A stretch of 63,677 nucleotides of DNA, filler included. It is 11 parts of 11 records of this genome, joined end to end, with 100 filler letters (N's around TTAATTAATTAA, not from the genome) between each part and the next. Parts side by side here need not be neighbours in the genome. Positions count along the whole stretch, not along the records: positions 32,643 to 36,129 come from SRR11831586_876; 10 more parts are not named here. The stretch is one strand, 5' to 3'. Made by a program: the position numbers and the translations under genes. Below are positions 3,725-61,017 of the stretch, piece after piece. Every line of letters begins with the position of its first letter. Positions within the stretch are counted from its first letter, which is position 1. The notes beneath the pieces were generated by a model. That model saw nothing but the letters and a program-made list of their open reading frames with translations, had not been told where the DNA came from and did not search any database.

Positions 3725-3824
3725 NNNNNNNNNNNNNNNNNNNNNNNNNNNNNNNNNNNNNNNNNNNNTTAATTAATTAANNNNNNNNNNNNNNNNNNNN
3801 NNNNNNNNNNNNNNNNNNNNNNNN
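3725..3824. other. artificial contig linker (44N-TTAATTAATTAA-44N)
   Basis: 100-nt spacer with a six-frame stop core; flanking genes truncated and non-syntenic. Confidence 0.99.
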
Positions 3825-6782: not shown

Positions 6783-6882
6783 NNNNNNNNNNNNNNNNNN
6801 NNNNNNNNNNNNNNNNNNNNNNNNNNTTAATTAATTAANNNNNNNNNNNNNNNNNNNNNNNNNNNNNNNNNNNNNNNNNNNN
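6783..6882. other. artificial contig linker
   Basis: 44N-TTAATTAATTAA-44N. Confidence 0.99.
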
Positions 6883-18359: not shown

Positions 18360-18459
18360 NNNNNNNNNNNNNNNNNNNNNNNNNNNNNNNNNNNNNNNNN
18401 NNNTTAATTAATTAANNNNNNNNNNNNNNNNNNNNNNNNNNNNNNNNNNNNNNNNNNNN
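18360..18459. other. artificial contig linker
   Basis: 44N-TTAATTAATTAA-44N. Confidence 0.99.
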
Positions 18460-25336: not shown

Positions 25337-25436
25337 NNNNNNNNNNNNNNNNNNNNNNNNNNNNNNNNNNNNNNNNNNNNTTAATTAATTAANNNNNNNN
25401 NNNNNNNNNNNNNNNNNNNNNNNNNNNNNNNNNNNN
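25337..25436. other. artificial contig linker
   Basis: 44N-TTAATTAATTAA-44N. Confidence 0.99.
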
Positions 25437-32542: not shown

Positions 32543-32642
32543 NNNNNNNNNNNNNNNNNNNNNNNNNNNNNNNNNNNNNNNNNNNNTTAATTAATTAANN
32601 NNNNNNNNNNNNNNNNNNNNNNNNNNNNNNNNNNNNNNNNNN
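32543..32642. other. artificial contig linker
   Basis: 44N-TTAATTAATTAA-44N. Confidence 0.99.
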
Positions 32643-35160
32643 ACAAAGTGGACCTCCTCTCCAATGACCAAGACCGTCTCGATGTGACCCAGTTTGTGCA
32701 GCAGCACGCTCGAAGAACTCTTGAGACCACCAGTGAGGTCCCGCTCTTTCCCGTCTCAGCCAAGCGCGCGTTTTTGGCACGGACAACACCGTCCGCAAAC
32801 GCAGATGCGTATGTACACGTGCACTGCACCGACCGTGTCGTTCATAGCGCAGTACAGAGACTGCGCACTTCTGGTGTTGTAGGCGCCAATCTTCAACCAT
32901 CCTCTGTTCCTCTTGCGGTTCACGTGTGTTGTCCTCTTCGCGGTGTTCATCCATGATTATGTCTGTGATGGTGCCTGAGTATCGCACCGTTCCTGTTTGT
33001 GCAGAGAATGGGCGGAGAGTGGGATCGCCTCGTTGGAAAATTACATCGCCACCACATTGACGACGGGCGAGCGGTTCAAGTTAAAGCTCTCCGGGCCTCT
33101 AAAAGTGGCAGGTATACCGAAAGAAGGAGATGGTGAGGTGAAGAGCTTGTGTGTGTCAAATAATGCGTTGTATTGTTACTCGTGCGACTGCGGTTCTGCC
33201 TGTTGAATGGTGCGGGTATCCTCAATTTCACCCTCTGTGTACTCTTTGCAGAACAAGTCTCAGCCAAATACATCGCGGCTGTCTCACAGAAGCGTGCTGT
33301 GCTGCGACATGACGAGGAGACTCTGCAAAGTATCGGTATGCTAACACTCACACATATTATGCTGCTTCGGATCGTGCGATCTACGTCAGTACAGCTGAGT
33401 TTTCATGTTTCCGTTGTGGGTTATTTGATAGATACGCAGCTGGACGAATTTGCGCGGGATATGGCCAAAGAATTCAAATCATTTGAAAGCCGTATTGATG
33501 CGGTGATGCTGGAGACGATGGAACGAGGTACGTAACGTCGTGTGTATCGCTTTGTTGTGCCGATTGCTCTGTACGCTTTGTGTACTGATATACTCTTATC
33601 CTCCCGACCACTGCGTTTGCTGTGTTTATTTTTATTGTGTGTCTGTGCATCGAAACTGATCTTGCAGTCACTGAATTCTGCGCGTAGGGGATGCCTTTAT
33701 CAATCGCACTTTCGCTGTGGGCCGCCTGTTCGATGTTCTAAACGCCACCCGGCTGCGGCAGCTCTTTGAACAGTACGTGTTGTGCGTGCGGTGATCTGTT
33801 TCAGTATCGGTGATGTATTTTGTTGTCGCAGAACGGCTGGATTTATTGCAGTGTGTTGTGTGCGCAGGGAGGTCGTGGGCGATGCGGCTCAGCGACTGGA
33901 CGCCGCTATGCAAGATCTTACGGACTGGCTGGTGGAGCGCTCGAGGAAACAGTGGTCCTTCCTGCAGTACTACCTCGAGCAGCAGACCGCAAAGGCGTGT
34001 TGCTACGTTCACGTTTGGTGCTTCTTTTGCTCACTGTTAATGTGTGTGTGTCGTGTGTTACATTCCTTGCGTTTTTTTTGGCTGCCTTCTTCCGCTTCCG
34101 CGAAGTCATACGCGTCTATATACCATGAGATCGCAGTTGTCAGTCGCGTACGTGAAGTAAGCTCCCCCGTATTACGTCATCGACCGGAGCGAGCTGTCTG
34201 AGGAAGTCTGGGAGATGGACATGCGTCCTACTCACACGCCCCGAATGTGCAGGCGACCGCAACTGCTGCCTTACAAGGCATGACTGCACCGCGCGGTCTT
34301 CTGGACAGCACTGACAGCACACGGAGGCATCTGCTTGATCGGCTCACCACAGAGACCAGTGCAGTGTTTGGTACGGTAGCGCCCCGTATCTCTCCCGTGT
34401 GTATGTTTCAAACGCTGTTCCCAATGTATCGCAGTCACTTTGCCGTGTGCGCGTGTGTGGGTATGGGCGTGTCTTATGTGTGTTTGCCTCTCTAGTAGAC
34501 GAGCGGGCACAGCGTGTGCATGCGGACGCCGTGAGCCACGCCCTGCGAGGAGCTCTGGTACAGGCCGCTGCTGCATCAAGTGTCGGTATGTGCTTGCATG
34601 CCCTCGTTATGCGAGTCACCGACCGCTTCTTGCGTGCATAGGTGTGGGTGTTGCGGCGGCCACTGCAGCGGGTCTGATTGATGTGACCGGGTTTATCGGC
34701 GCAGGGACTTTGGCTGCGCTCTCATTGGCGGTGCTTCCCGTGCGAAGGTCCTCTGCCCGTCGTGATCTGCGTGTGCGGTTGCAGCACGCACGGGAGCGGA
34801 CGGTGCAGGCTGTGCGCGCCAAGGCAACGGCGGAGACTGAACGTGTGAGTATGTGCGGGCGTGTGCGTGCGCGTGTGCGTGCATTGGCTGCGTGTCCTTC
34901 TTGTGCGAAGCTCTGTGTCTTGCATGAATTGTTTTGAGCCAAGCACTGTGATGGGAACATTCTACTTGCGGGGATCCTTCATTTTTCTGGCCGTCTAATT
35001 TCTGTGTTGGGCTCTAGTCGGTGTAATGCGGAACGCGGTGCAGCCGTTTGCACGCTATGTGCGGTCGGAGTTGCAGCAGGTGGACAGCCTGTGTGCCAGT
35101 CTGGACAACAACGCACGGTCGATGCGCTTGCTCCTGACGCGTGTGGGCGACATGGCCTAG
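32643..35160 (+). CDS. spliced gene, 5'-truncated: FZL/mitofusin-like (bacterial dynamin-like family) membrane GTPase
   Basis: exons 32643-32808, 33005-33111, 33252-33335, 33432-33527, 33688-33772, 33868-33994, (34106-34147 probable), 34253-34370, 34496-34585, 34642-34848, 35018-35160 join in frame; (N)KVD G4, FPVSAK G5, ERFKLKLxxPL, hydrophobic hairpin ending LPVRR. Confidence 0.82.
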
Positions 35161-35535
35161 TGTTGCACGCTCGTGCGAGGCAAAACGTGCGAGGCAGCGA
35201 ATCTCCTCGTTATAGTGCTTGAGTTACGGTTTATCAAGTTCGACGACGAACCATAGATCGCGCAACTCTACACACCCGCAGTACATAAGTGGGCGGCAAG
35301 CGCGCTCTACTTACGGCGAAGCAACAACGGCGCGCGAGTTTGCTAGGAAGCGCGAATTCTGCTTCCCCACATCAACATCGTCGCGCGTATGGAGCAAATG
35401 TTCTGAGAAGTTGTGGCCTGTGTCCCGGCGAAAGTCCGTGCGATGACGACGGGCCCTCCGATCGCAACATTGGGCCAGTCATTGTGTCGCAGTCGCACCC
35501 AAACGATGCTCAGCTCGAAGCATGTAATAAGCCGC

Positions 35536-36102
35536 CTACAGTCGTTTCTCGCACTCGCTGAGCAGCGCTTGGGTTGAGTCCGTCTGCCAGCAGCCCATTT
35601 TCAGGGGACCACCTGCCAACGCAATGTATTGGCGCAGTAAAGCTGTAGCCTACGAAGGAGAGTGTGAGTTTGCAGCGCAGATGTACGTACACAGAAAAGA
35701 GGAACGAACATCCCACGGGCGAATCGAAGGGCACAAGACGAACGCCGCAAAACACAACGTACTTGTTGAAGATGACCCTCATGAGCGAAATGAATACCCC
35801 TACGAGCCACAATCAGCATCGAATCCGTTACGATAAAATTCGCACGAAACTCACTCGGCAAACACAACAGCAATAGAGAAGCGCAGAGTTCAGCGGAAAC
35901 AACACGCGTTTTAGTCGTAGTCAATTTTCCAGTCCATGAGCGTACATGTAAGCACGCAGCACGCCCTCAAAGATGAGCCCAAACACACACATATCGTCCA
36001 GCAGTCCTTCCTCCAGCAGCTTCTGTGTGTCCGCGTCCTCTGCGATCCAGTTACGCGCCCCTGCAGTGCGGGTCTGGCGCAACTCGCTCAGGTATTCGAT
36101 TC
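35536..36102 (-). CDS. spliced gene, 5'-truncated: unknown protein with TPR-like C-terminal helix pair
   Basis: exons 36102-35946, 35799-35763, 35649-35536 join in frame across two GT-AG introns. Confidence 0.65.
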
Positions 36103-36129
36103 CTACTCATTTCACGGTGAGATCCCCCG

Positions 36130-36229
36130 NNNNNNNNNNNNNNNNNNNNNNNNNNNNNNNNNNNNNNNNNNNNTTAATTAATTAANNNNNNNNNNNNNNN
36201 NNNNNNNNNNNNNNNNNNNNNNNNNNNNN
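36130..36229. other. artificial contig linker
   Basis: 44N-TTAATTAATTAA-44N. Confidence 0.99.
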
Positions 36230-38992: not shown

Positions 38993-39092
38993 NNNNNNNN
39001 NNNNNNNNNNNNNNNNNNNNNNNNNNNNNNNNNNNNTTAATTAATTAANNNNNNNNNNNNNNNNNNNNNNNNNNNNNNNNNNNNNNNNNNNN
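38993..39092. other. artificial contig linker
   Basis: 44N-TTAATTAATTAA-44N. Confidence 0.99.
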
Positions 39093-41342: not shown

Positions 41343-41442
41343 NNNNNNNNNNNNNNNNNNNNNNNNNNNNNNNNNNNNNNNNNNNNTTAATTAATTAANN
41401 NNNNNNNNNNNNNNNNNNNNNNNNNNNNNNNNNNNNNNNNNN
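41343..41442. other. artificial contig linker
   Basis: 44N-TTAATTAATTAA-44N. Confidence 0.99.
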
Positions 41443-55969: not shown

Positions 55970-56069
55970 NNNNNNNNNNNNNNNNNNNNNNNNNNNNNNN
56001 NNNNNNNNNNNNNTTAATTAATTAANNNNNNNNNNNNNNNNNNNNNNNNNNNNNNNNNNNNNNNNNNNN
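55970..56069. other. artificial contig linker
   Basis: 44N-TTAATTAATTAA-44N. Confidence 0.99.
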
Positions 56070-60917: not shown

Positions 60918-61017
60918 NNNNNNNNNNNNNNNNNNNNNNNNNNNNNNNNNNNNNNNNNNNNTTAATTAATTAANNNNNNNNNNNNNNNNNNNNNNNNNNN
61001 NNNNNNNNNNNNNNNNN
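60918..61017. other. artificial contig linker
   Basis: 44N-TTAATTAATTAA-44N. Confidence 0.99.

Follow-up and report, generated by a model that had tools for sequence, protein, structure and literature searches.

A predicted intron-split eukaryotic gene fragment for a short bacterial-type dynamin-like GTPase on a foreign contig among Escherichia coli contigs

Among eukaryotes, fusion GTPases of the dynamin-like, bacterial type are known mainly from two groups, the mitofusins and chloroplast FZL, the latter of unclear bacterial origin. For the protein family considered here, the best solved relative is the dynamin-like protein (DLP) of Nostoc punctiforme, BDLP (2J68/2J69/2W6D), which is built from a GTPase domain, helical bundles and a membrane paddle. 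In the FZL protein CrFzl, a transit peptide and a TMP-synthase domain precede the GTPase, which is followed by a helical region, a hydrophobic domain and a C-terminal coiled helix, according to its description (PMC6436760). Another report (PMC5827413) states that AtFZL has no highly similar counterpart among cyanobacterial DLPs.

Here we describe a locus at positions 32643-35160 of a window of 63,677 nucleotides, which is the whole stretch of DNA that was analysed. Judged from its sequence, the locus appears to be the 3′ two-thirds of a nuclear eukaryotic gene with ten exons and nine modelled introns of spliceosomal type. The spliced product is predicted to belong to the BDLP/FZL/mitofusin branch of the dynamin superfamily, and seems to be of the short 'bacterial' type (stand-alone DLPs of ~575 aa) rather than the long FZL type seen in green algae and plants.

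The window consists of 11 contigs with N44-TTAATTAATTAA-N44 spacers between them. The gene-bearing contig (32643-36129; 3,487 b; GC 0.543) is the only one of the 11 that is without long ORFs, and no E. coli or plasmid match to it was found. The contigs on either side of it are both 100% E. coli. The contig is therefore foreign DNA, either a contaminant or a mis-binned piece, and in practical terms a eukaryotic contaminant contig can be flagged within an E. coli assembly. The first-pass annotation had called the gene hidden, a description that must be withdrawn in that the gene is not located in a eukaryotic genome and instead occupies a lone non-E. coli contig amid E. coli contigs.

Removal of the nine introns leaves 1,223 nt, which when read from the third base give 406 codons followed by a TAG stop codon, with no internal stops. 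All junction phases are consistent and restore one frame, exactly as had been proposed. Eight of the nine donors are GT and were assigned to the form GTAYG, one is GC (position 33995), and all nine acceptors are AG. The exons contain 20% T versus 34% in the introns, and codon position 1 carries 40% G and 12.5% T, a bias of the kind expected in coding sequence. The segments between the exons are rich in T, filled with stops (intron 3 is stop-free) and have one common donor consensus. Thus, the splice-site consensus, the phases and the differing base composition of exons and introns uphold the earlier call of an intron-split gene of eukaryotic type, and the gene is predicted to be spliced and expressed.

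A family HMM built from 80 bacterial homologues was run on six-frame pieces of the locus. Nine of the ten exons were matched separately on the plus strand, in colinear order and with profile coordinates that meet at the proposed junctions, which is the outcome anticipated by a suggestion that homologue alignments should break at the predicted introns. On the minus strand, no piece scored above 0 bits. Exon 1 (32643-32808) is cut by the 5′ edge of the contig and contributes residues 1-55 of the model (HMM 212-275, 35.1 bits, from the piece 32645-32842). The contig start falls inside G4, such that G1-G3 are off the contig and only the K-x-D of G4 is present, in the form K-V-D at 32645-32653, and this exon also carries F-P-VSAK at 32747-32764. 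From exon 1 onward the product aligns to a bacterial homologue, P0084, from residue 181. By this comparison the contig lacks ~180 N-terminal residues, in which G1-G3 and any additional or targeting domain would be found, and the P-loop part lies beyond its edge as the first-pass annotation had assumed.

All further features of the model are likewise on the plus strand. Intron 1 (32809-33004; 196 nt, GTATGT...CAG) separates exon 1 from exon 2 (33005-33111; HMM 262-296, 26.1 bits), which carries ER-x-x-LKL-x-x-P at 33066-33101. After intron 2 (33112-33251; 140 nt, GTATAC...CAG), exon 3 (33252-33335; HMM 296-325, 6.2 bits) is followed by intron 3 (33336-33431; 96 nt, GTATGC...TAG), which is in frame and stop-free. 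Exon 4 (33432-33527; HMM 324-357, 16.3 bits) precedes intron 4 (33528-33687; 160 nt, GTACGT...TAG), in which a 26-nt tandem repeat of 2.2 copies spans 33543-33600. Exon 5 (33688-33772; HMM 356-388, 13.6 bits) and intron 5 (33773-33867; 95 nt, GTACGT...CAG) lead to exon 6 (33868-33994; HMM 384-426, 28.0 bits), which includes a family-invariant W and whose 3′ boundary is uncertain.

Intron 6 (33995-34252; 258 nt, GCGTGT...CAG) is the one that begins with the non-canonical GC donor, which is of poor consensus, and it could contain a micro-exon. Among 4,303 alternative stop-free models for exons 6 and 7, scores range from 285 to 292 bits versus 285.3 for the earlier single intron; the best alternative gains 6.5 bits over the single-intron model, and none was adopted. 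By eye, a short stretch within this intron looks like the Y-D-R block of the family, in another frame. Exon 7 (34253-34370) covers a region that is variable in the family and has the weakest support of all exons, in that it yields no separate match to the family HMM. It is stop-free and in phase, and lies within the full-length alignment.

Intron 7 (34371-34495; 125 nt, GTACGG...TAG) is followed by exon 8 (34496-34585; HMM 462-500, 3.1 bits) and the short intron 8 (34586-34641; 56 nt, GTATGT...TAG). Exon 9 (34642-34848; HMM 493-562, 35.6 bits) encodes most of a hydrophobic hairpin and then the start of the C-terminal helix. The hairpin (34582-34748) crosses the exon 8/9 junction, has a central D-V-T-G at 34680-34691 and ends with L-P-V-R-R, and the hydropathy maxima of the spliced protein (residues 289-303 and 305-322) flank the D-V-T-G. 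Intron 9 (34849-35017; 169 nt, GTATGT...TAG) includes a (GCGTGC)n repeat at 34859-34882. Exon 10 (35018-35160; HMM 566-606, 16.5 bits) carries the helix start P-F-x-R-Y-V-R-S-E-L at 35041-35073 and the TAG codon at 35158-35160. Repeats of the introner type were sought across the introns, which have no repeat family in common.

The exons are also joined by homology at full length. Residues 1-390 of the spliced product match residues 181-561 of P0084 in a single alignment of 204 bits, and exons 2, 5, 8, 9 and 10 align to this homologue and to the family even though they are outside the query frame that found the first homologue. The spliced model matches the proteins of all 80 bacterial loci (127-208 bits) and scores 285.3 bits with the HMM of these 80 members. 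It keeps 16 of the 19 family-invariant columns that can be tested and 24 of the 39 columns conserved at >=90%. The motifs picked out in the first-pass annotation, namely the G4 K-x-D, F-x-VSA, ER-x-x-LKL-x-x-P and the hairpin P-x-RR, prove to be conserved positions of the family, and the same is true for the C-terminal helix motif P-F/Y-x-R-Y/F-VR. One conserved family block, G-x-x-G-G-x-F-x-Y-D-R, is unrecognisable near the exon 6/7 junction, where F409 and Y411 are not kept.

Searches with individual exons returned very little. A HMMER scan of 1.84 billion representatives, for which exons 1, 3, 4, 6 and 7 served as the query in frame, found just one protein with E<=0.001, P0002, which is a fragment from bacteria, and no eukaryotic match, indicating that a close relative of the gene is absent from this collection. 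A word-index search with exon 1 in a collection of 5.8 billion clusters produced 14 candidates (of 'longer' lengths), none of which scored. Comparison of exon 1 with the PDB and the ESM Atlas gave chance-level rows only, and the exons of the gene are without a PDB match of their own. Pfam assigned no family to nine of the ten single exons and one chance-level match (E 0.17) to exon 9. NCBIfam, when applied to P0001 (a frame read-through) and to exons 9 and 10, likewise gave one chance-level match, to exon 9, and P0001 found nothing relevant in the PDB or NCBIfam. A metagenome scan with exon 1 confirmed one of 593 pattern matches (L087), which was considered as a eukaryotic relative and rejected because it is an uninterrupted and more distant bacterial relative. 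In G001, the Dynamin_N profile matched only generic P-loop GTPase pieces, and none of 151 genomes from its phylum had a Dynamin_N match at E<=1e-20.

Assignment to the dynamin superfamily can be made through the bacterial homologues. The Pfam Dynamin_N domain is found in P0084 at 4e-27 and in P0084, P0056 and P0010 together at 1e-27 to 1e-29. All structure and PDB evidence is for P0084, which is ~34% identical to the spliced protein, and not for the spliced protein itself. The best PDB sequence matches of this homologue are BDLP (2j68, 1.9e-18), Cj-DLP1 (7.8e-13) and Fzo1 (7e-9). In its AlphaFold model (pLDDT 80.2), long helices occupy 250-453, residues 444-491 form a hydrophobic segment of low confidence and a further helix covers 477-574, and Foldseek places BDLP first (2j69, 2.3e-17), followed by IniA, Cj-DLP1/2, Mfn1 and Fzo1. 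Through colinearity with P0084 181-561, the layout of helical bundles, hydrophobic hairpin and C-terminal helix after the G domain extends to the window protein. Thus, structure prediction against BDLP and mitofusin folds, as carried out on the homologue, agrees with the first-pass assignment to the BDLP/mitofusin branch, with Nostoc BDLP as the best solved relative and Campylobacter DLP1, Fzo1 and Mfn1 behind it. The resemblance to BDLP is distant: when P0084 is aligned with it by structure, identity is 16-17% and TM-scores are ~0.3, the latter because the conformations differ.

If the window protein works in the manner of BDLP and FZL, GTP binding would lead to dimerisation of the G domains, and a closed-to-open switch of the helical bundles would come next. 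This switch could expose the hydrophobic hairpin and allow it to insert into the bilayer, and oligomers might then tether, tubulate or fuse membranes. By this analogy the protein is a predicted membrane-remodelling GTPase, and it would be expected to share with FZL a GTP-dependent membrane tethering or fusion activity that operates via the hydrophobic paddle.

The closest relatives of the spliced product are bacterial 'dynamin family proteins' of ~575-578 aa from Deinococcota, Chloroflexota, Gemmatimonadota and Rubrobacteria (127-208 bits). These short DLPs, such as P0084 and L010 among those of Trueperaceae/Deinococcota and other groups, are colinear with the window protein from G4 to the C-terminal helix and have the same motif set, including the hairpin D-V-T-G ... 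L-P-x-R-R. They differ in being single ORFs, whereas the window gene has nine introns, and in having the conserved G-G-x-F-x-Y-D-R block that is not kept in the window protein. The window protein also diverges more than the bacterial phyla do from each other (a median of 160 bits to the family, versus 262 bits for P0084 to other phyla). Around the bacterial genes, no neighbouring gene is conserved from one phylum to another, and two large extra neighbourhood clusters appear to be antisense shadow ORFs that overlie the DLP gene itself.

Similarity to the long green-algal proteins of FZL type is lower. Of these, 109 of 120 are matched, with a maximum of 52.6 bits versus the bacterial-family median of 160 bits, and identity is 18-22.5% versus 26-34% to the bacterial family. 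We call the algal proteins FZL-type on the basis of a Pfam architecture (PF02581, TMP-TENI, plus Dynamin_N) that matches the published CrFzl description, and no database cluster names were found that call them FZL. None of seven insert blocks seen only in the algal proteins is present in the window protein, and at 21 signature columns its residue is bacterial-like in 12, algal-like in four and neither in five. The parts of the window protein downstream of the GTPase domain follow the order reported for FZL (CrFzl, AtFZL; PMC6436760). The FZL layout named in the first-pass annotation is therefore retained as regards the motifs after G4 and homology to FZL-type proteins, and the evidence stops short of FZL orthology, given <=52.6 bits versus 127-208 bits to the bacterial proteins and 0 of 7 inserts.

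We favor a scenario in which a short bacterial DLP gene would have been transferred into a eukaryote, with fast divergence and intron gain to follow. As an account of the gene's origin, we judge this to be somewhat better than an even bet. For the reading as a whole, namely a eukaryotic, intron-bearing fragment of a gene for a short bacterial-type DLP that originated by bacterial transfer, we estimate a probability of roughly 0.6. A more specific version proposes that a short DLP of Deinococcota type was acquired by a eukaryote that may have had no green plastid, independently of the event that gave rise to plant FZL, and that the gene then gained at least nine introns. We regard this version as tentative, with the odds against it. 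The main competitor, which we consider rather less likely than not, is that the gene is a true FZL orthologue, either early-branching or slowly derived, that descends vertically from the acquisition to which plant and green-algal FZL also go back. It would then belong to a plastid-bearing eukaryote not yet sampled and act on membranes of the plastid or thylakoid. The architecture after G4 as described for CrFzl fits this proposal, the algal FZL-type proteins and the short bacterial proteins are clearly homologous (195-215 bits), and the characters common to the window protein and bacteria may be simply ancestral. A phylogeny with FZL and bacterial DLPs, suggested in the first-pass annotation, was built from 41 of the 80 bacterial loci and 14 of the 120 algal proteins, a sample without land-plant, red-lineage, cyanobacterial or trypanosomatid sequences. 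The careful maximum-likelihood (ML) tree puts the window protein on the bacterial side, beside a Deinococcota clade (UFBoot 94, SH-aLRT 86; below the strict support threshold), and splits off the algal clade from the window protein plus bacteria at 100/100. The end branch of the window protein is 1.79, versus a median of 0.3. A constraint that unites the window protein with the algal clade is 4.31 log-likelihood units worse in the careful tree and is not rejected by the AU test (p-AU 0.151), such that a position on the FZL stem survives, and in a quick tree the same constraint is 5.81 units better (p 0.693). Arguing against orthology are the exclusion from the algal clade, about three times more bits to bacterial than to algal proteins, the missing inserts, only four of 21 algal signature residues and a database-wide scan without a eukaryotic match. 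The N-terminal parts that define FZL lie off the contig.

Other explanations fare worse. A dead or decaying copy, either a pseudogene or an unexpressed transfer relic whose frame is intact only by recency, would account for the very long end branch, the unrecognisable G-x-x-G-G-x-F-x-Y-D-R block with its loss of F409 and Y411, and the one non-canonical donor, and expression is itself a deduction from sequence. We consider this improbable given that 406 codons over ten exons are free of stops and frameshifts, 16 of 19 invariant residues are kept, codon-position bias is of the coding type and eight of nine donors follow one consensus. Moreover, gain and maintenance of introns would imply long residence as a spliced gene. 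Even less credit can be given to a mitofusin/Fzo1 orthologue, meaning a fusion GTPase of the outer mitochondrial membrane of the opisthokont type. Mitofusins lie in the superfamily branch that also holds BDLP, and both sequence and fold searches with the homologous bacterial family match Fzo1 and Mfn1 through its G domain. However, these matches are weaker than those to BDLP and involve the GTPase domain only, the Fzo_mitofusin (HR2) Pfam domain is absent from the ten exons and from P0084, P0056 and P0010, and the P0001 read-through has no PDB match to a mitofusin even at E<=10. The term mitofusin-like in the first-pass annotation is thus apt for the superfamily branch and not for any mitofusin-specific domain. 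Finally, a chance selection of GT-AG sites from non-coding sequence, or a bacterial gene made chimeric during assembly, could be suspected from the 4,303 stop-free alternatives around one junction, and has almost no chance of being correct. It is refuted by the one-piece alignment with P0084 and the exon-wise, colinear HMM matches, which include exons unused in the search; the 285 bits to the family HMM, the T-rich, stop-filled segments with one donor consensus between the exons, and the uninterrupted ORFs of the bacterial relatives also speak against it.

If an intron-rich gene indeed sits with the short bacterial family, it would either give this protein type a second lineage in eukaryotes or supply a missing stem form, and would also point to the bacterial group that gave such genes. 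Should independent uptake prove true, the short bacterial clade would gain its first eukaryotic member, for use in organelle or endomembrane remodelling, and the origin of FZL-type proteins would be tied to Deinococcota, Chloroflexota, Gemmatimonadota and Actinomycetota, not to cyanobacteria. Literature searches, which covered articles without their supplements, found no report of a eukaryotic member of this family. The value of the find is limited by its being a 3.5-kb fragment only.

Downstream of the TAG codon, a 3′ flank (35161-36129; no strand assigned) runs to the end of the contig. It matches nothing in Rfam and no protein firmly, with one sub-threshold Pfam match. Its Atlas matches are low-confidence fungal clusters with 132-142 features in common, which were not used for taxonomy. 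This segment probably represents intergenic DNA or 3′ UTR, and the end of a convergent gene may lie within it.

The region at 32643-35160 (+ strand) is confirmed as part of an intron-rich eukaryotic gene. The first-pass annotation had claimed that removal of nine introns would leave a single stop-free frame, and with exactly those nine introns taken out the remaining 1,223 nt, read from the third base, give 406 codons and a TAG with zero stops. Eight of the nine donors read GTAYG and one is GC (33995), and all nine acceptors carry AG. T content is 34% in the introns compared with 20% in the exons, and the first codon position of the spliced model has 40% G and 12.5% T. The predicted protein includes one cysteine among its 406 residues. 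The introns are 56-258 nt long, and a search for a repeat family shared among them found none. They contain only small TG/GC-rich tandem repeats, comprising a 26-nt unit in 2.2 copies (33543-33600, intron 4), a CGTGTGCG run (34444-34472, intron 7) and a GCGTGC run (34859-34882, intron 9). These repeats, along with the TG-richness of the introns and their uniform GTAYG donor, might aid in recognising the source lineage.

The gene fragment is located on a contaminant contig. Among the 11 contigs in the window, which are separated by spacers of 44 N, TTAATTAATTAA and another 44 N (3725-3824, 6783-6882, 18360-18459, 25337-25436, 32543-32642, 36130-36229, 38993-39092, 41343-41442, 55970-56069 and 60918-61017), it occupies the sixth (32643-36129; 3,487 b, GC 0.543). 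ORFs of at least 150 aa, summed over frames, cover 16% of this contig versus 60-134% of the other ten, which look bacterial by ORF density, and no other contig lacks long open frames. On either side, the neighbouring contigs match E. coli chromosomes at 100% identity (the yebT-rsmF region and codBA). Because the sixth contig has such flanks, lacks long ORFs, and matched neither 5,426 E. coli genomes nor a plasmid collection, we consider it to be foreign DNA in an essentially E. coli assembly. As the only non-bacterial contig among the 11, it also indicates that the assembly is mixed or contaminated.

Single exons yielded no relatives in Pfam, NCBIfam, PDB or the Atlas, and neither did exon 1 alone in a word-index protein search. 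Since exons 1, 3, 4, 6 and 7 share one frame, the read-through of 32645-34369, with X at its seven stops, was used as a query for HMMER against 1.84 billion representative proteins. One protein was recovered at E<=0.001, a 270-aa fragment (P0002; E 1.3e-5, 39% identity) whose continuing sequence visibly matches exons 2 and 5, which lie outside the query frame. This match supports the splice model independently. P0002 in turn led to 310 longer proteins. The 120 of these that were listed are 498-621 aa long, mostly 575-578 aa, and all organism-named examples among them are called 'dynamin family protein' and come from Trueperaceae or Truepera. Domains found among the longer proteins are Dynamin_N and MMR_HSR1, with the bacterial DLP helical domain in some.

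The family proved widespread in species genomes, where a scan gave 600 pattern matches, of which 589 were relatives. The best 80 of the 589 represent Deinococcota, Gemmatimonadota, Chloroflexota, Actinomycetota (Rubrobacter), one Acidobacteriota and MAGs. A metagenome search with exon 1 returned one contig, encoding an uninterrupted and more distant bacterial relative. Full-text searches covering the main texts of papers gave no account of any eukaryotic protein belonging to the short family.

The complete spliced product matches its relatives along its length. It scores up to 204.8 bits against a set of 121 proteins and 127-208 bits against the best 80 loci, all of which match. Residues 1-390 align as one domain to residues 181-561 of P0084, a bacterial 'dynamin family protein' of ~578 aa, and this alignment runs across every one of the ten exons, taking in both the hydrophobic hairpin and the C-terminal helix. 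It also places ~180 N-terminal residues, including G1-G3, beyond the contig edge, in agreement with the earlier proposal that the P-loop lies upstream of the contig. An HMM built from the 80 bacterial proteins was run on all six-frame pieces of the contig, and nine of the ten exons were matched, all colinearly on the + strand, and their profile coordinates meet at the junctions; homologue alignments thus break at the predicted introns. No piece of the - strand scored above 0 bits, and exon 7 (34253-34370), which falls in the variable stretch of the family, gave no match by itself. The same HMM gives the full model 285.3 bits. Invariant residues are retained in 16 of 19 testable columns, and residues at least 90% conserved in 24 of 39 columns; a conserved G-G-x-F-x-Y-D-R block is not recognisable in the model.

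Intron 6 (33995-34252) is 258 nt long, has the GC donor, which is of poor consensus, and falls in the variable stretch of the family. Among 4,303 enumerated stop-free alternatives with one or two introns, the best reaches 291.8 bits, a gain over 285.3 bits that is too small for an alternative to be chosen. Inside this intron, 34161-34205 (+ strand) encodes a Y-x-I-D-R-S-E-L-like peptide in a frame unlike that of exons 6 and 7. The peptide recalls the F-x-Y-D-R block of the bacterial family that is otherwise missing from the window protein. Splice models taking in this segment did not score clearly higher, and we regard it as a lead for a micro-exon.

Assignment of the protein to the BDLP/mitofusin branch, as the first-pass annotation had claimed, is supported by domain, sequence and fold matches of P0084, which is ~34% identical to it, and by the two hydrophobic maxima of the window protein itself, located around D-V-T-G and ending L-P-V-R-R. 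P0084 matches Dynamin_N at 4.3e-27, and by sequence the solved structures nearest to it are those of Nostoc BDLP (1.9e-18), Campylobacter DLP1 (7.8e-13) and Fzo1 (7e-9), with IniA and Mfn1 also among the best matches. P0084 was also modelled with AlphaFold from an alignment of 56 sequences (mean pLDDT 80.2, pTM 0.68). In the prediction, a G domain is accompanied by very long helices, a hydrophobic segment of low confidence (444-491) and a helix at the C-terminus. Foldseek ranks BDLP at the top (2.3e-17), followed by IniA, Cj-DLP1/2, Mfn1, LeoA, SynDLP and Fzo1. The TM-scores are ~0.3, as expected because such proteins open and close. By analogy with BDLP and with CrFzl as outlined in PMC6436760, GTP binding would drive G-domain dimerisation, the helical bundles would then open to expose the hairpin for membrane insertion, and oligomers might tether, tubulate or fuse membranes.

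Whether the protein is of the FZL type was examined with longer relatives, of which 251 were found using a 498-aa member of the short family as query. The best 120 of these are 881-1,063 aa long, carry TMP-TENI and Dynamin_N domains, and have named sources in Bathycoccus, Chlorella, Ulva and Trebouxia, plus MMETSP transcripts. Their architecture equals that of Chlamydomonas Fzl, which PMC6436760 gives as a transit peptide, TMP-synthase domain, GTPase, hydrophobic domain and coiled coil, and so we treat them as FZL-type on the basis of architecture, although a look-up showed that no database gives them that name. The window model matches 109 of the 120, with a maximum of 52.6 bits and a median of 48.6, versus a median of 160 bits for the bacterial family; as a control, the same region of P0084 gives medians of 86.8 bits against the algal set and 262 bits against other bacterial phyla. 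Identity is 18-22.5% to the algal proteins and 26-34% to the bacterial family. Unlike the algal proteins, the window protein carries none of the seven algal-only insert blocks, and 12 of 21 signature columns are bacterial-like, four algal-like and five neither. The earlier assignment is partly supported; its BDLP/FZL family part stands, and the FZL type is less favoured than the short bacterial one.

The alignment behind the trees had 56 rows and 398 columns. Alongside the window model it sampled the 80 bacterial loci (41 included, no more than eight per phylum label, by score order) and the 120 algal proteins (14 included, hand-picked for spread). Both the quick tree (SH-aLRT 87) and a careful IQ-TREE search (UFBoot 94, SH-aLRT 86) place the window protein beside the Deinococcota clade, and the careful tree separates the algal clade at 100/100. 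Constraining the window protein to group with the algal proteins raises the log-likelihood of the quick tree by 5.81 units (p 0.693) and lowers that of the careful tree by only 4.31 (p-AU 0.151), so the placement is provisional and a position on the FZL stem is plausible. The window branch is 1.79 long, versus a median of 0.3. Membership in the combined short-bacterial and FZL family is firm, and within it we favour the short bacterial type.

PMC11789081 reports that each of its sampled algae and plants has one copy of FZL and that FZL groups loosely with Mfn/Fzo; the survey in PMC10280142 left out mitofusins and BDLPs. The algal FZL-type proteins are 28-47% identical (195-215 bits) to P0046, a short DLP of the Trueperaceae-like family. 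None of the best 80 loci, ranked by likeness to a Trueperaceae protein, is cyanobacterial, and PMC5827413 reports no cyanobacterial DLP highly similar to AtFZL. Together, these observations hint at a possible non-cyanobacterial origin of FZL.

Across the same 80 loci, no gene neighbour conserved across phyla was found, and recurring neighbours are Deinococcota-specific only, in 9-13 loci. Thus, the short bacterial DLP appears to be a stand-alone gene, unlike other bacterial dynamins for which operons of paired DLPs have been described. On the eukaryotic contig, the sequence 3' of the stop codon (35161-36129) has no Rfam match, and its sole protein lead is a 61-aa open frame at 35924-36106 (minus strand) that resembles Pfam RIMC1/Mic1 (E 0.003; 17.3 bits, below the cut-off of 25). 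The Atlas offers only low-confidence eukaryotic (fungal) clusters for this frame. RIMC1/Mic1 is a eukaryotic RAB7-pathway protein, and the frame may be the tail, or last coding part, of a convergent eukaryotic neighbour gene.
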